From a virus: a stretch of DNA of 42,368 bases. A program made the position numbers and the translations under genes. Positions 2,109 to 37,902 of the stretch are shown here, piece by piece (position 1 is the first letter of the stretch; each line of letters begins with the position of its first letter). Where the stretch lies: IMG/VR virus record IMGVR_UViG_3300033075_000143, positions 1 through 42,368 of that record. One strand, written 5' to 3'. Under the pieces are notes generated by a model, which was not told the origin of the DNA, searched no databases, and was given only the letters and a program-made list of their open reading frames with translations.

Positions 2109-2321
2109 ATGTCGCTCTTCGATCAGCCCAAGGCTGCGCCTCCCGTCATCATCCCGCCCCCCAAAGTTCCGCAGATCGACGACGCGATCTCGCGGCGCAA
2201 TCAGGAAGATCAGCAGCGCATTCGCAACACCGGCCGCGGCTCGACGCTGCTCGCCGGGACGCGCGGCCTTTCCGATCTCGGCAGCGTTGGCGCTCCGACC
2301 GCAACAGGAGGCGCACAGTGA
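2109..2321 (+). CDS. Hypothetical small protein (70 aa).
   Basis: ORF with the codon bias of its neighbours. Its stop overlaps the next start (GTGA). Confidence 0.5.
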   Translation: MSLFDQPKAAPPVIIPPPKVPQIDDAISRRNQEDQQRIRNTGRGSTLLAGTRGLSDLGSVGAPTATGGAQ

Positions 2322-2578
2322 GCATTCGCAAAATCCTCGCCGCCCGCGGCAAGACGCACGGCGACTTCGGCGAGCACGCGCGGATCACGCAGGCGCTCAA
2401 GGACGTCATGCACGCCAGCGACGGGTGGGCGCGGCTCAACCCGGCACAGCGCGAATCGCTCGAAATGAACGTCCACAAGGTAGGGCGCATCCTCGCCGGC
2501 AACCCCGATCATCGCGACCATTGGGCGGATATCGCGGGCTACGCGCAGCTCGTCGCCGACAGACTGCCCGACGAATGA
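2318..2578 (+). CDS. Small all-alpha phage protein, DUF6378 / MazG-like NTP-pyrophosphohydrolase-type motif.
   Basis: GTG start with AGGAGG 7 nt upstream. Motif RGKTHGDFGEHA...KVGRILAGNPDHRDHWADIAGYAQL. Confidence 0.45.
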   Translation: MSIRKILAARGKTHGDFGEHARITQALKDVMHASDGWARLNPAQRESLEMNVHKVGRILAGNPDHRDHWADIAGYAQLVADRLPDE

Positions 2579-2739
2579 AGGACGATCTGCCCGACCCCCG
2601 TCAGCTCAATCTCGACCTTGGCGACGAGGAAGCGAGCGCGCGGGAATTGCGCGACGTCGCTCTGACGGCGATGTGGGTGTTCGGGTTTCTGATCTTGATG
2701 GTCGCTATCTGCGCCACGGCGCTGTGGAGGCTGACGTGA
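2575..2739 (+). CDS. Small membrane protein (54 aa).
   Basis: ATGA overlap with the previous gene. One hydrophobic helix, LTAMWVFGFLILMVAICATALW. Confidence 0.45.
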   Translation: MKDDLPDPRQLNLDLGDEEASARELRDVALTAMWVFGFLILMVAICATALWRLT

Positions 2740-4349
2740 GCACGGCCAAGGAGCTGATCGACCGCCAGCAGAACATGAAGACCAAGCGCGCTCAGTTCGA
2801 GCGGCAGTGGCACATGATCGGCATGCAAGTCCTGCCGCGCTACGACGACTTCATCAACAAGGCCGTCCAGGGCGCGCGCCGCGACCAGTTCATCTACGAC
2901 AGCACCGCGCCTCTCGCGCTGGAGAGCTTCGCCGCTGCGCTCGAAAGCCTTCTCGTCCCGCGTACACAGTACTGGCACGGCCTCGCGCCGGTCGACAAAA
3001 GCCTGTCGAGCCTCCGCGTGCGGCGTTTCAACGAAGACGTTCGCGCGTTCATGTTCGCCGCGCGCTACTCGCCCTACGCCAACTTCGCCTCTCAAATCCA
3101 AGAAGTCTTTCTGGAGCTTGGAGCTTTCGGCACCGGTATCATGTTCATTGAAGACGCCCGTAACCGTGGCGTCTGCTACCACACGATCCCGCTCGCCGAA
3201 GCCTTCATTGCGCAGAACGCGCAGGGCTTCGTCGACACGATGTTCCGGCGCTACGAACTGTCGGCGCGCGCGGCCTACCAGCGTTGGGGCGAGCGTCTGC
3301 CCGAAGCGATCCGCAAGTGGGTCGAGAAGGAACCGGATCGCACGTTCGAGTTCCTGCACGTCGCCATGCCTAACGAAGACGTCAAGCGCGGTTCGCGCAC
3401 GTTCCGGGGCATGAATATCGCGTCGTTCGATATCTCTGTAGAGGGGTCGGCGGAGCTTTCGGTCGGCGGCTTCCGCACCATGCCCTACGCCGTCTCGCGC
3501 TACACGACTGCGGCGCGCGAGGTCTACGGCCGTTCTCCTGCGCAGATGGCGCTCGCCGATATTCGCTCGCTCAACGAAATGGCGAAGACGAACCTGCGCG
3601 TAGGCCAGCTCATCGCCGACGCACCGATCCTGACGAGCGACGTCGACGCCCTGTCGCCCTTCTCCATGAAGCCAGGCGCCATAAACGCCGGCTATCTCAA
3701 CGAGCGCGGCGACCAGCTCGCCAAGCGCATGGAGCCGGTAGGCGATCCGCGGATCACGCTCGAAATGGAGAACCAGCGGCGCGAGACGATCAACCGTTCG
3801 TTCCTCGTGACGCTCTTCCAAATCCTGATCGACACGCCGCAGATGACGGCGACCGAAGTGCTGGAGCGCGCGCAGGAAAAGGGAGCCCTGCTCGCGCCGA
3901 CGATCGGCCGCCAGCAGTCGGAATTGCTCGGCCCGATGATCGAGCGCGAGCTGGATATCCACTGGCACGCCGGCCGCATCCCGCAACCGCCCGAGGAGCT
4001 TATGGCGCGCGGCGGGCTCAAGATCGAATATTCCTCGCCGCTCGACCGCGCGATGCGGGCGGAAGAAGGCGTAGGCATCCTGCGCACGATCGAGGCCGTC
4101 AAGCCGATCGCAGATATCGACCCCACGGTGCTGCGCAAGTTCAATTGGGAGCGCACTGTCGACACGCTGGCCGAAGTCAACGGCATGCCTGTCCGGTGCC
4201 TCAACACCGAAGACGAAATGGCCGCCAAGGCGCAGCAGGAGCAGCAGGCGCAGGCCGTGCAGCAGCTCACGGAGCTTGCGCCCCAGGCGGCGGCCGCGGC
4301 GAAGAACATGGCGCAGGCGCAGGCCGTCGCGCGGCAACCGGGGTTCTGA
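2736..4349 (+). CDS. Portal (head-tail connector) protein, podovirus type.
   Basis: About 537 aa, with a GTGA overlap start. N-terminal ...RAQFERQWHMIGMQVLPRYDDF... and a Q/A-rich C-terminal tail. Located after TerL. Confidence 0.85.
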   Translation: MSTAKELIDRQQNMKTKRAQFERQWHMIGMQVLPRYDDFINKAVQGARRDQFIYDSTAPLALESFAAALESLLVPRTQYWHGLAPVDKSLSSLRVRRFNEDVRAFMFAARYSPYANFASQIQEVFLELGAFGTGIMFIEDARNRGVCYHTIPLAEAFIAQNAQGFVDTMFRRYELSARAAYQRWGERLPEAIRKWVEKEPDRTFEFLHVAMPNEDVKRGSRTFRGMNIASFDISVEGSAELSVGGFRTMPYAVSRYTTAAREVYGRSPAQMALADIRSLNEMAKTNLRVGQLIADAPILTSDVDALSPFSMKPGAINAGYLNERGDQLAKRMEPVGDPRITLEMENQRRETINRSFLVTLFQILIDTPQMTATEVLERAQEKGALLAPTIGRQQSELLGPMIERELDIHWHAGRIPQPPEELMARGGLKIEYSSPLDRAMRAEEGVGILRTIEAVKPIADIDPTVLRKFNWERTVDTLAEVNGMPVRCLNTEDEMAAKAQQEQQAQAVQQLTELAPQAAAAAKNMAQAQAVARQPGF

Positions 4350-35581: not shown

Positions 35582-35785
35582 CTAGCTCACCGACTTTTCG
35601 GCGGCGTGCTGACCGAGAAGCTGCATGGCTTCGGACAGTTCACCTTCCGGCGACACGAGCGCGGCCGGCTCGGCCTTGCCGACGATCTGCGAGGCGTAGT
35701 TGAGCATTTCGTTCGTGGCTTCCGCTTCCGTCTCGAAGAGCGCGCCGCTCGGCGTGAGGAAACGCTCGACCTTCTGAATCTGCAT
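35582..35785 (-). CDS. Hypothetical protein (67 aa).
   Basis: ORF coupled to the RuvC-like gene stop. Confidence 0.5.
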   Translation of the reverse strand: MQIQKVERFLTPSGALFETEAEATNEMLNYASQIVGKAEPAALVSPEGELSEAMQLLGQHAAEKSVS

Positions 35786-36285
35786 TATCGTCCCTTTCCA
35801 AGTTTACGCTCGCCCCACAGAGCGAGCATCGCGGCTTCGGCACGACCATCGTGCTTCTGCAACGGCCAGAGGTGCGCGTGGTGCGGCAGCAGCTCGTTGG
35901 CGCGCGCACGGATCACCTTCGAATTGTCAGAGGGACATTTCATTTCGGCCTTCCACACGGACGGCGCGACAGGCTCGACGGAATAGCCAAGCCCGAAGGC
36001 GATCCCGCGCAGCACGCCGCAGCCGAAACCGAAATTGAAAGCGGCCGATGCGGATTGACCGGGCCGCCCGTTGACGTCCTCGATCACGAAATGCGTGGCG
36101 CCGAGCCCCTTGAAAGTGTCGAGCAGCGCGTAGACTTCGGCGATGTTCAGGATCGTGCGCTTCTTCTGGCCGCGCTTGAGCGCCTTCTCCAGCGTCGGCA
36201 TGTCATAGACGTCGAACGCGCCCAACTTCGTGTCGTCGAAGCAGAGAGCGCCTTGGAGGCCCGGATCGCAGGCGACGAGTATCAT
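35785..36285 (-). CDS. RuvC-like Holliday junction resolvase.
   Basis: MILVACDPGLQGA..., VIEDV..., KHDGRAEAAMLALWG. Confidence 0.8.
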   Translation of the reverse strand: MILVACDPGLQGALCFDDTKLGAFDVYDMPTLEKALKRGQKKRTILNIAEVYALLDTFKGLGATHFVIEDVNGRPGQSASAAFNFGFGCGVLRGIAFGLGYSVEPVAPSVWKAEMKCPSDNSKVIRARANELLPHHAHLWPLQKHDGRAEAAMLALWGERKLGKGR

Positions 36286-37838
36286 GCTGCCTCCATCAGC
36301 GCGCGGAGGACTTGGGCCGCGACTTGCGGAACGATTGCATTGCCGCCAATGCGCAGGAGACCCACTCGGCCGGGAAGCCCATCAACCAGAAGACGAATTC
36401 CGGAGCCAACGCGCCGCGCTTTGCCGTCGGCGCCGATGCGCAATTCTGCGTCGCGCCAGAAGGAGTGCCGCAGGCCTGGTCCTCCAAGCGAGCCCGCGCC
36501 ATGCGTTCCCGCGTTCCAAAACCCCGCCCGCCGTTCGCCGTCACCCGCGGCGTTGCCCAGCTCGCGCTCTCCCGCGCCTGTATCGGCAGGTGCGCATTCC
36601 CGCCGCCTTCCGTCTTCGTCGTCCTGCCGCCCTCGCCGTCCGACGCTTTCGGCGTGGCCCATGCGCTCACCTGATCGTTCAGGTTCGCCATGCCGTGGCC
36701 TTCCGCCTTCTTCGCTGCGATGTATTCCGGCGTGTGCGCCGGGAAATGATCGCGCGCCTGTGGCGTCGCCCATTGCGACCCAATAGAGCCGCTGTCTGAT
36801 GTGCGGCGCATCGACGGCGCAAGCCGGGATATCGGTCGTCCCGAAGGCGTAACCGATTGACTCCAAGTCAGAGGAAACTCCGTCGACCCAACTTTCGACA
36901 GCCGCTCCTTCAGCCGGGCCTCCCATTTTGCCAACGGATGCTCCTGCGCCGATGCGCGAAGTTCCTTGATCCCGTCCGCGACCTTCAGGACCGGCTCCTC
37001 GCCCCAGGTATTCATCATCACGTTCAGCGCGAACAGCACCACGCGGACGTTCGTGATCGTGTAGCCAAGCTCCGGGATGATCCGGTCGAGCGAAGGACTG
37101 TCCCACGTCCTGCCCCCGTCCAACCGGAAAGGTAAACCCGAAATCTCGCAGCGCCCCGCGTCGATCCTCGCCTGCAACTGGTCCGCGAACTGGTCGAGAT
37201 CGAAGGGTAAGCCCGCCTGCTTCGCTCGGTAGCGCGCGGCCGTAACCAGCACCGAAGCGCGGTTCTTCTCCCTGTATTTCTGGAAAGAACCCGACCTCTG
37301 CGCCTTCGAGCCAATCCGATAATTCGCCTGCCATTCCCGGCAGCACGTCTTGCATTGCGCGTGCAAGCCACTCGAACTGGCGTGCTTGCCCCGCGTCCGA
37401 TAGAACTCCGAGAAGGTCTTCTCCTGCCCACATCGACTGCACGTCTTTGTCGACTGGCCTTCTTGTGCCTGTGGCGTTGGACACCTGTTCTCCAACCACA
37501 ACGGGCGGTCGACACTCTCGGATGAGGCGAAAGAAGTCGGGCCACAGGTGCCGAGGATCGTCGGCGCCCCTGCCTTTTCCCGCGACGCTGAACGGCTGGC
37601 ACGGGCACGAGCCGGTCCAGAGCGGTCGGTCGTCGGGCCATCCGGCAAGTCGGGCGGCAACGCTCCAGAGGCCGCCTCCGGCGAAGAAATGACACTGTGT
37701 GAAGCCTCGAAGGTCATCCGGCCCGACGTCGGTTATGCTCCGAGTGTCGACTTCGCCGTCTGCGATCACGCCGAGAAGGATCGCCGCGCGTAGCACTTCT
37801 GCTGCGGCAGGCTCGATCTCATTGTAGTACGCCGGCAA
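36282..37838 (-). CDS. DNA (cytosine-5) methyltransferase reading frame (frame A).
   Basis: AYYNEIEP..., HFFAGGGLW (I), GSCPCQPFS (IV), VVVGEQV (VI), APHIRQRLYWVA (VIII), RIGGNAIVPQVAA (X). Probable TTG start at 37838, behind CTGCTAGGGG. The stop overlaps the RuvC ATG. Two internal stretches look off-frame. Confidence 0.65.
   Translation of the reverse strand: MPAYYNEIEPAAAEVLRAAILLGVIADGEVDTRSITDVGPDDLRGFTQCHFFAGGGLWSVAARLAGWPDDRPLWTGSCPCQPFSVAGKGRGADDPRHLWPDFFRLIRECRPPVVVGEQVSNATGTRRPVDKDVQSMWAGEDLLGVLSDAGQARQFEWLARAMQDVLPGMAGELSDWLEGAEVGFFPEIQGEEPRFGAGYGRALPSEAGGLTLRSRPVRGPVAGEDRRGALRDFGFTFPVGRGQDVGQSFARPDHPGAWLHDHERPRGAVRAERDDEYLGRGAGPEGRGRDQGTSRIGAGASVGKMGGPAEGAAVESWVDGVSSDLESIGYAFGTTDIPACAVDAPHIRQRLYWVAMGDATGARSFPGAHAGIHRSEEGGRPRHGEPERSGERMGHAESVGRRGRQDDEDGRRRECAPADTGAGERELGNAAGDGERRAGFWNAGTHGAGSLGGPGLRHSFWRDAELRIGADGKARRVGSGIRLLVDGLPGRVGLLRIGGNAIVPQVAAQVLRALMEAA
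36296..37501 (-). CDS. +1-frame ORF (frame B): zinc-ribbon / HNH-like module, then W-A-T-P repeats and WLMGFPAEW.
   Basis: KTCSRCGQEK...HAQCKTCC; SPSLDRIIPELGYTITNVRVVLFALNVMMN; WATPQARD, WATPKASD, WATPRVTANGG. Third-position GC favours this frame at 37141-37200 and 36661-36720. The start is undefined (in-frame TTGs at 37501 and 37495, ATG only at 37717). Confidence 0.45.
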   Translation of the reverse strand: MWLENRCPTPQAQEGQSTKTCSRCGQEKTFSEFYRTRGKHASSSGLHAQCKTCCREWQANYRIGSKAQRSGSFQKYREKNRASVLVTAARYRAKQAGLPFDLDQFADQLQARIDAGRCEISGLPFRLDGGRTWDSPSLDRIIPELGYTITNVRVVLFALNVMMNTWGEEPVLKVADGIKELRASAQEHPLAKWEARLKERLSKVGSTEFPLTWSQSVTPSGRPISRLAPSMRRTSDSGSIGSQWATPQARDHFPAHTPEYIAAKKAEGHGMANLNDQVSAWATPKASDGEGGRTTKTEGGGNAHLPIQARESASWATPRVTANGGRGFGTRERMARARLEDQACGTPSGATQNCASAPTAKRGALAPEFVFWLMGFPAEWVSCALAAMQSFRKSRPKSSAR

Positions 37839-37873
37839 GCGCTCACCCCTAGCAGAATTGCAGCACTTGTCGC

Positions 37874-37902
37874 ACGATAGCAATTGCTACCGAGAAACGC
37901 AA
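37874..37902 (-). promoter_or_regulatory. Leftward promoter P_L3: -35 TTGCGT, 17-nt spacer, -10 TATCGT. The palindrome TAGCAATTGCTA (37878-37889) occupies the spacer and the first bases of the -10.
   Basis: Read directly. Shares its architecture with three other sites. Confidence 0.55.

Follow-up and report, generated by a model that had tools for sequence, protein, structure and literature searches.

The window analysed here, a stretch of 42,368 nucleotides (nt) corresponding to positions 1 to 42,368 of the viral record IMGVR_UViG_3300033075_000143, carries a putative C5 cytosine methyltransferase locus in which two long open reading frames (ORFs) are superimposed on the minus strand. ORF A (36282..37883, 533 amino acids (aa), from the open reading frame list) fully contains ORF B (36296..37717, 473 aa), which lies in its +1 frame. 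A sequence-only reading of the same DNA had described the locus as a two-frame mosaic with protein text alternating between the frames, and had offered four explanations without choosing among them: an overprinted gene, invasion by an endonuclease-like ORF, recoding by paired frameshifts, and compensating indel errors. All motif strings quoted in that reading are present in A and B in their places, and the protein text is real in both frames, as judged from homologies in each frame and from the recurrence of the layout in 38 loci. Overprinting and invasion were borne out, jointly, and recoding and indel errors were not. The features of the locus are collected in Table 1.

Table 1 Features of the two-frame methylase locus and the adjoining gene in the window (alpha, product of frame A; beta, product of frame B).
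Feature	Position	Strand	Content
Alpha ORF, frame A	36282..37838	-	Motifs I, IV, VI, VIII and X; two unconstrained linkers are read through
Beta ORF, frame B	36296..37717	-	Weakly constrained leader, zinc-ribbon/HNH-like module and beta core
Alpha motifs I, IV and VI	37482..37688	-	FFAGGG (37688-37671), SCPCQPFS (37610-37587), VVVGEQV (37502-37482); purifying selection in A only in the equivalent region of related clades
Left repeat copy of imperfect 13-nt direct repeat	37483..37495	-	TTGGAGAACAGGT; retains the alpha G-E-Q-V codons
Inserted element, 570 nt	36913..37482	-	Frame-B coding; bounds from the uninvaded contigs L049 and L050
CxxC...CxxC zinc ribbon of module, frame B	37343..37441	-	CSRC/CKTC (37441-37343); confident region of the predicted model
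HNH-like module core, frame B	37010..37150	-	C-E-I-S-G ... S-P-S-L-D-R-I..G-Y...N-V-R-V-V....N; SPSLDRI...GY at 37099-37061
Right repeat copy	36913..36925	-	TGGGAGGCCCGGC; retains the beta W-E-A-R codons of helix PLAKWEARLKERL
Alpha motifs VII-VIII overlapping the beta N-terminal core	36774..36890	-	Alpha WVDGVSSDLESIGYAFG...APHIRQRLYWVA (motif VIII text at 36809-36774); beta GSTEFPLTWSQSVTPSGRPISRLAPSMRRTSDSG
Beta-coding variable region, three WATPxxxD units	36465..36773	-	WATP units at 36772, 36661 and 36559; frame A is a stop-free, unconstrained linker
Doubly constrained segment	36350..36464	-	Alpha SFWRDAELRIGADGKARRV...LLVDGLPGRVGLLR; beta KRGALAPEFVFWLMGFPAEWVSCA, motif-IX-like string (...FVFWLMGFPAEWV at 36421-36350)
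Alpha motif X and C-terminus	36285..36347	-	GGNAIVPQVAAQVL (GGNAIVPQ... at 36347-36285); constraint in A only; beta stops at 36296
RuvC-like Holliday junction resolvase gene	35785..36285	-	phrog_1770 match, 1e-26

Frame A holds motifs I, IV, VI, VIII and X in canonical order (FFAGGG, CPCQPFS, GEQV, PHIRQRLYW, GNAIVPQ). It scored 50.8 bits against PF00145 (cut-off 22), with aligned profile positions 66-118 covering motifs IV-VI only, and matched phrog_363 'DNA methyltransferase' at 3e-60 over aa 17-532. NCBIfam returned a sub-threshold dcm match for alpha and none for beta. At least 7,965 relatives of frame A were found, and PF00145 was present in all 120 of those listed. The likely start of alpha is TTG 37838 (M-P-A-Y-Y-N-E), preceded by GGGGTGAG; the mechanical ORF reaches TTG 37883, and the close relative P0235 is called from the same MPAYYNE. 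Between motifs VIII and X the frame A text is rich in G, R, A and E and shows an omega of ~1 in related clades, and neither motif IX nor a folded target-recognition region was found between VIII and X within the frame A chain. The frame A product is the predicted catalytic large domain of a C5 cytosine methyltransferase.

Frame B consists of two parts with different relatives. Residues 86-259 matched phrog_3322 (1e-29) and phrog_1035 (7e-24), annotated as 'endonuclease / endonuclease VII', and residues 242-460 matched phrog_1008 (2.5e-18), labelled 'DNA methyltransferase'. We refer to the first part as the module and to the second as the beta core. In the window, the beta core is made up of a hairpin (TWSQSVTPSG..RRTSDSG), three WATP units and a motif-IX-like string; the corresponding family pattern is a hairpin LTWKxxxTPSG...RTS, variable WxTP repeats and LNPxFxxWLMGFPxEW, a form of motif IX that lies ~10 codons ahead of the frame-A motif X. 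A beta-core profile retrieved 32,663 representatives of 50%-identity clusters at E<=1e-3, and among the best 120 beta-core relatives none carried a catalytic motif or a Pfam domain according to precomputed domains. The WATP/LMGFP text belongs to a separate beta-subunit family; the sequence-only reading was unaware of this and of the fact that a split enzyme of this kind and hidden endonucleases in methylase genes had already been published. A sliding profile of GC content at third codon positions (GC3) alternated as that reading had counted, being higher in frame A at 37680-37530 and 36900-36780, and higher in frame B at 37470-36900 and 36780-36300. The [ML]G[DHN]A units of frame A are, by direct reading, the off-frame image of TGG GCN ACN CCN, that is of the WATP units, again as had been proposed.

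The nested arrangement is widely conserved. Phage records and 39 IMG/VR loci yielded a set of 38 scorable loci, the window counted in, and in all 38 a full-length ORF with motifs IV, VI, VIII and X contained a long +1 ORF carrying WxTP repeats and [WL]LMGxP. Searches by tblastn with either frame led to the same places in other phage genomes, and a megablast search of the locus against phage genomes gave no match. In the GenBank record of E. coli phage K1ind2, ORF28 ('Mte8-like protein', 1e-64 against phrog_1008) is nested in the +1 frame of ORF29 ('C-specific methylase'), which encodes an alpha of 309 aa. The annotations 'Mte8-like protein'/phrog_1008 and 'C-specific methylase'/phrog_363 in Kagunavirus and other phages denote the same nested pair, which we also found in Pseudomonas phage Haboob, Rhodobacter phage RcIroh, cyanophage Cy-LDV1 and an uncultured podovirus. 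Alpha text of motifs VII-VIII and the beta text overlapping it are both conserved across distant phages. The databases label beta 'DNA methyltransferase' or 'Mte8-like' and state neither its overlap with alpha nor its contribution, and in the literature the name 'Mte8' was found only in one passing listing.

Using codon alignments of two clades (13 and 8 sequences), selection was determined separately for each frame. We used an OLGenie-style count by our own script, in which each nucleotide difference was scored as changing A, B, both or neither, combined with a bootstrap over codon columns. From the start to motif VI, omega was 0.13-0.15 for A and 0.55-0.73 for B (interval reaching 1), and from motif VI to VIII it was 0.15-0.25 for A and ~0.5 for B. 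Over the variable region, defined as motif VIII to 45 codons before motif X, omega A was 0.79-1.06 and omega B 0.12-0.21. The 45 codons that precede motif X showed constraint in both frames, with omega 0.25-0.50 for A and 0.25-0.26 for B; from motif X to the end A is constrained and B has already ended. The mosaic noticed in the sequence-only reading is a mosaic of constraint. That reading had also considered that frame-B segments might lack homologues and frame-specific conservation; both were found, and the constraint was specific to each frame in the two clades.

None of the 19 diverged lineages had a frame-A stop within the variable region coded by beta, and synonymous shuffles of B gave 0.5-7.5 expected stops per lineage and ~42 in total. 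Since frame A is neutral there and yet kept open, it would be translated as a linker, and since two frames constrained over the same codons cannot be one polypeptide, the two observations together argue for two proteins and not for frameshifting. The most extreme linker in the set was seen in locus L017 (IMG/VR 2937877337_000001, 2122-3531; alpha 470 aa, beta 454 aa, five WxTP units), where frame A runs through 208 beta-coding codons without the 7.5 stops that would be expected. When the window was compared with L049 and L050, two closely related metagenomic contigs, the WxTP-repeat region (36470-36751) could not be aligned, with flanks being 89-97% identical. This pattern suggests a cassette-like exchange of the variable region, which would be in keeping with beta determining the target, and the selection map likewise suggests that target recognition resides in beta and not in alpha.

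Alignment to relatives further showed that the window gene carries 190 extra codons directly after alpha motif VI (GEQV), corresponding to an insert of 570 nt if one repeat copy is counted. The insert point is the start of the constrained part of beta. Upstream, up to 37483, L049 and L050 are 96-97% identical to the window and the insert is absent from both; homology resumes at 36925 with 80.6% identity. The uninvaded 13 nt TGGGAGAGCAGGT align to both insert ends, and a flanking duplication is supported in the form of this 13-nt repeat, perhaps extending to ~25 nt; a duplication of ~55 nt was considered and set aside. The left repeat copy serves alpha (G-E-Q-V) and the right copy serves beta (PLAKWEARLKERL helix). 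Invasion of the methylase between motifs VI and VIII by an out-of-frame, start-less endonuclease-like ORF, as the sequence-only reading had put it, is thus seen as a 570-nt insert absent in relatives that are 97% identical upstream. The insert is also absent from the phrog_1008/phrog_363 phage homologues mentioned above. Across the insert, GC3 is 0.8-0.93 in frame B and 0.3-0.6 in frame A, and the frame A text is rich in G, A, R, E, D and P. No stop interrupts frame A over the 177 B-coding insert codons, where synonymous shuffles predict 4.9 (P=0.0018). In the window the module lacks a stop, frame B being continuous from ATG 37717 across the module to the beta core, and the same holds for loci L046, L047 and L051.

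The same module occupies the same site in L046, L047, L051 (P0233), P0231, P0238, P0254 and P0316, and the alphas of these seven other invaded hosts are only 45-55% identical to that of the window. Frame A is again stop-free in L046 (Logan contig; 0 stops observed, 3.1 expected, P=0.016), L047 (contig of a Gemmataceae metagenome-assembled genome, 51% GC; 0 against 7.2, P<2e-4) and L051 (106-kb contig; 0 against 5.6, P<2e-4). An in-frame fusion of module and beta without an intervening stop was present in at least eight cases (window, L046, L047, L051, P0138, P0143, P0144 and P0150). Between L051 and the window the module is 67% identical and the beta core only 42%. Alpha residues flanking the insert (IRECRPP...GEQVSNA.GTRR) are common to the invaded genes and not shared by the closest uninvaded relative of the window, as expected if the flanks were converted together with the element. 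Being absent in near-identical relatives and present at the same site in divergent ones, the insert behaves like a homing element and looks mobile.

Related insertions were observed elsewhere in these genes. In L048 (Logan SRR14194031 contig; 69-866, 863-2659, 948-2012, 2019-2522), a free-standing module gene lies just upstream of an alpha/beta methylase and begins with a duplicated alpha N-terminus, MSGVYYSDNDPFCCAWLREL. The methylase itself holds a canonical HNH ORF (phrog_1271, 2e-14) that shares the frame of beta and is placed after the beta stop and ahead of alpha motif X, and alpha reads through it with 0 stops against 2.9 expected (P=0.02). The HNH ORF marks a second site of insertion at which alpha reads through in the same way. 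P0146, a module-family protein of 167 aa, ends in alpha motif X text, GGNAIVPQLAAAFIEAAA, and P0249 is an alpha enlarged by ~130 aa immediately ahead of motif X. Together they hint at further insert arrangements around the 3' end of the gene.

The module was modelled with AlphaFold at high confidence (predicted local distance difference test score (pLDDT) 94, predicted template modelling score (pTM) 0.76). Its best structural matches in the PDB are beta-beta-alpha-metal nucleases, namely PacI (prob 0.98), Gme HNH (prob 0.99) and Hpy99I, together with Cas9 HNH and, at a lower level, T4 endonuclease VII. The Foldseek scores are modest, with a best E of 4.6e-3 and TM-scores of 0.3-0.56. Among viral models, 93 matches were obtained at E<=1e-3, several of them named HNH endonuclease. 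Sequence searches of the PDB with the module and with the beta profile gave no match. Over 61 family members, the C, S, R, Y, N and N residues of C-E-x-[ST]-G...S-P-S-L-D-R-I..G-Y...N....N are invariant. Relatives of the module are mostly free-standing phage genes of 130-220 aa without a Pfam family. These phrog_3322/phrog_1035 genes, such as gp51 of PaMx28, are 38-43% identical to the window module and share its C-E-x-[ST]-G ... S-P-S-L-D-R-I..G-Y...N motif. Unlike the window module, they have their own start and stop, and they contain 7-9 stops in the frame corresponding to that of alpha. In searches by frame, A returned PF00145 and B the phrog endonucleases, in line with the division made by the sequence-only reading; its HNH-like assignment was not matched by any HNH or Endonuclease_7 model in Pfam.

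Both layers of this arrangement have counterparts in the literature. M.EcoHK31I of E. coli HK31 (Lee, Kam & Shaw 1995; Fung et al. 2006) is a heterodimeric C5 methyltransferase whose beta chain is encoded wholly inside the alpha gene in another frame (PMC2836561). Both chains are required: the enzyme is inactive once the start codons of beta have been silently removed, and it can be reconstituted from separate alpha and beta chains. Target recognition is placed in alpha (PMC2836561). The window resembles this system in that B is nested in A on the same strand in the +1 frame, a comparison of architecture and not of sequence. It differs in that the VIII-X segment of alpha is neutral here and the constraint lies in beta, that M.EcoHK31I belongs to a restriction-modification system whereas here we see phage genes with no adjacent restriction gene, and that an endonuclease insert was not reported there. 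M.EcoHK31I alpha comprises 309 aa and beta 176 aa; the former equals the length of K1ind2 alpha and the latter is close to that of the constrained beta core of the family. M.AquI, said to have been described by Karreman and de Waard in 1990, is reportedly another two-subunit C5 methyltransferase with overlapping ORFs, which is split in the variable region so that the ORFs overlap briefly and are not fully nested.

The second counterpart is the ShiLan domain of actinobacteriophages, where an HNH endonuclease lies concealed out of frame within a gene for a DNA methylase (Arsenault, Gosselin & Gogarten 2025; PMC11855218). It is an insert of ~200 codons at a conserved methylase site; the host frame is stop-free and reads as disordered, and the alternative frame encodes a zinc-finger and HNH-type protein (PMC11855218). 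No intron, intein or splicing signature was detected, and the disjunct distribution suggests homing (PMC11855218). Inside the insert, the endonuclease of ShiLan starts at a GTG and ends at a TAA of its own, and its route of translation was left unexplained by the authors (PMC11855218). The window insert is likewise present or absent among close relatives, sits at a conserved site and leaves the host frame without a stop. In the other frame it encodes a zinc ribbon and an HNH-like fold, with the catalytic His absent and no Pfam HNH match. In contrast to ShiLan, the window module lacks a stop and runs on into beta, an overlapping host ORF that was there before, the nuclease family is a different one, His-less and without a Pfam model, and the host is a dual-coding alpha/beta gene, so that the insert must stay open in two frames.

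Taken together, we consider it likely that the locus is an EcoHK31I-type nested alpha/beta cytosine methylase gene that was invaded by a ShiLan-like hidden endonuclease element fused to beta. The sequence-only suggestion of a dual-coding gene agrees with this, the pair being found in 38 loci under frame-specific selection. According to this model, one gene would give two proteins from overlapping frames. Frame A would encode alpha, the catalytic large domain that bears motifs I-VIII as well as X, with continuity of the chain provided by sequence-indifferent, stop-free stretches, and frame B would encode beta, a separate subunit that would contribute motif IX and the variable region of WxTP repeats. 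On the analogy of M.EcoHK31I, the two chains would come together as the active enzyme. The mobile 570-nt HNH-like endonuclease element would have inserted just after motif VI, where constrained beta begins, carrying a duplicated copy of the dual-coding target, and because of this duplication alpha would keep motif VI (left copy) and beta its first helix (right copy). The module, having no stop of its own, would be translated as part of beta, and alpha would carry the same nucleotides as a 190-residue, probably disordered, loop. It is our inference that both proteins would be made and bind each other, with the module still able to cut DNA and spreading by homing.

More tentatively, a homing-type endonuclease may here have solved its expression problem by in-frame insertion in a nested beta ORF, so as to be translated as a domain of the target-recognising beta subunit, with alpha reading the same DNA as a harmless loop, the element being held open in two frames, and the duplicated target copies serving one frame each; we rate this possibility somewhat below even. 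In a stronger version, the nuclease domain, beta recognition and the alpha methylase would be one complex, in which cutting and protective methylation would share specificity.

Several observations weigh against the proposed model or limit its reach. Support is weak for assigning motif IX and target recognition to beta: the sole hhalign match for beta, between LAPEFVFWLMGFPAEW and motif IX of M.HhaI (residues 268-291), had E=0.11 over 24 columns with an approximate M.HhaI sequence, and artificial A-B-A chimeras improved the Pfam match in only one of two cases. The model of the beta core was poor (pLDDT 65, pTM 0.27) and a fold search with it gave no match; this would fit a subunit that folds on its partner and proves nothing. 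ATG 37717 is a candidate start codon for beta, with no strong Shine-Dalgarno sequence ahead of it. Several lineages have an ATG at this position, made by the alpha D-D codons (GAT GAC), and many called beta-family proteins begin at profile positions 18, 24 and 28, which suggests conserved starts made by these Asp-Asp codons. The alpha sequence itself permits few frame-B stops ahead of motif VI, so that the openness of frame B there says little about the start of beta. For the module, the HNH catalytic His is not conserved among the 61 family members, and Pfam searches with these 61 relatives gave no nuclease family and weak zinc-finger noise only. Nuclease activity is uncertain in view of the missing His and the module may be inactive. 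PacI is also reported to lack the usual His general base. Further, the pairwise selection counts use non-independent pairs, and the openness of frame A over the variable region has P=0.41 for the window alone, so that the argument is family-wide. The case for translation of either protein is built on selection and stop avoidance.

Among other explanations, the module may have been domesticated as a working domain of beta, adding a DNA-binding or DNA-cutting activity that shares the target recognition of beta. The in-frame, stop-less fusion in at least eight loci or proteins, the residues kept invariant across the family and the very confident model would fit such a role. We nevertheless regard domestication as unlikely, given that the insert is present or absent among near-identical phages and the same element occurs in very different hosts, which points to recent mobility, and that the catalytic His is absent. 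Moreover, the fusion may be forced, since with an upstream start of beta, frame B would have to remain open across whatever inserts here.

Programmed frameshifting (+1, then -1, twice) could in principle stitch the A and B segments into one polypeptide in canonical order. The order of motifs over the two frames does mimic a canonical single-chain enzyme, with IX (in B) ~10 codons before X (in A), and for one artificial A-B-A chimera the Pfam alignment reaches the end of the profile. We judge this very improbable. Frame A is stop-free through ~100-200 neutral codons, and a skipped segment would not need to be open; at motifs VII-VIII and in the 45 codons just before X, constraint acts on the two frames in shared codons; no X_XXY_YYZ heptamer was found at any frame transition; and M.EcoHK31I is reconstituted from separate chains (PMC2836561). 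The paired +1/-1 recoding put forward in the sequence-only reading falls on the same grounds.

A similarly low probability is given to the 570-nt insert being a self-splicing intron or an intein, which would be removed so that alpha never carries it and the open frame A would be coincidental. Homing endonuclease genes do usually reside in introns or inteins, and the insert site is highly conserved. However, a search of Rfam returned no group I intron or other intron family in the insert at E<=1, nor did any further Rfam family match it; four independent invaded loci all keep frame A clear of the 3.1-7.2 stops expected per locus; and by direct reading the frame-A junctions (...GEQV|SNATG and ...AVES|WVDG) lack the Cys/Ser/Thr at the start and the His-Asn at the end that an intein would show. 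The analogous ShiLan insert is also without a splicing signature (PMC11855218).

We give hardly any credence to assembly or sequencing indels, or a decaying pseudogene, having scrambled a single-frame methylase: the contig is metagenomic and shows four apparent frame switches in one gene, but the same layout is found in 38 independent loci including the finished genomes of the cultured phages K1ind2, Haboob and RcIroh, both ORFs are intact and under purifying selection, and the window locus has no homopolymer run >=6, so that the compensating indel errors suggested earlier are also set aside. Frame B being a non-functional by-product of GC-rich sequence in an ordinary methylase with low-complexity linkers is equally far-fetched: long off-frame ORFs are common at 64% GC and the openness tests over the variable region are not significant for the window alone, yet frame B is open and conserved at 51-58% GC (L001, L002, L008 and L047), omega B is 0.12-0.21 where omega A is ~1, the beta profile finds its 32,663 cluster representatives and the module has strong homologues and a pLDDT-94 model. 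The recurrence of the layout in 38 loci, several of them at 51-58% GC, excludes both assembly error and GC-rich chance.

The methylase gene is directly followed by the resolvase gene, and the alpha stop TGA (36282-36284) overlaps the resolvase ATG (ATGA), which the sequence-only reading had correctly assigned to a RuvC start. This order is unlike that in cyanophage Cy-LDV1 (L005; 2429-2914, 3279-3755), where a canonical endonuclease VII gene lies directly downstream of the alpha/beta methylase and a RuvC-like resolvase comes next; a canonical endonuclease VII gene directly downstream is also found in L051 (3277-3516). The Cy-LDV1 endonuclease VII has the same N-terminal zinc ribbon as the window module. 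In the source's own annotation, the only frame-B call on record is P0001 (36296-37252, 318 aa), which starts inside the endonuclease-like module, and no identical frame-A product was returned for the contig; an exact look-up of P0001 gave no entry. Automatic annotation evidently mishandles the nested pair at this locus. Two further signals look like coincidences, namely an Rfam match to 'Flavivirus_DB' below threshold on the plus strand (36813-36890; 23.7 bits, E=0.054) and a terminator-like hairpin on the minus strand at the right junction of the insert (36880-36901).

In conclusion, the alpha/beta layout and the hidden insert are each of a known kind, with published precedents in M.EcoHK31I and ShiLan, and a limited literature search found no account of the two combined, of how selection on each frame changes along the gene, or of how large the beta family is. 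In the papers found, the nested layout was represented by one restriction-modification enzyme, M.EcoHK31I, whereas here it is seen in a very large phage and prophage family, in which automatic annotation picks up a single frame, be it A or B, or gives shortened calls. The insert represents a natural case of DNA that is open in two frames and coding in one, and loci of this kind will be misread by gene finders, intein and intron screens and pseudogene filters. As the window module has no stop and continues into an already-translated host ORF, it would gain a route of expression and at the same time be forced to stay open in two frames. The fusion to beta thereby offers an answer to the question left open for ShiLan of how a hidden endonuclease gets translated. 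Target recognition in beta, as suggested by the selection map, would bear on the prediction of methylase specificity and on the engineering of split methylases.

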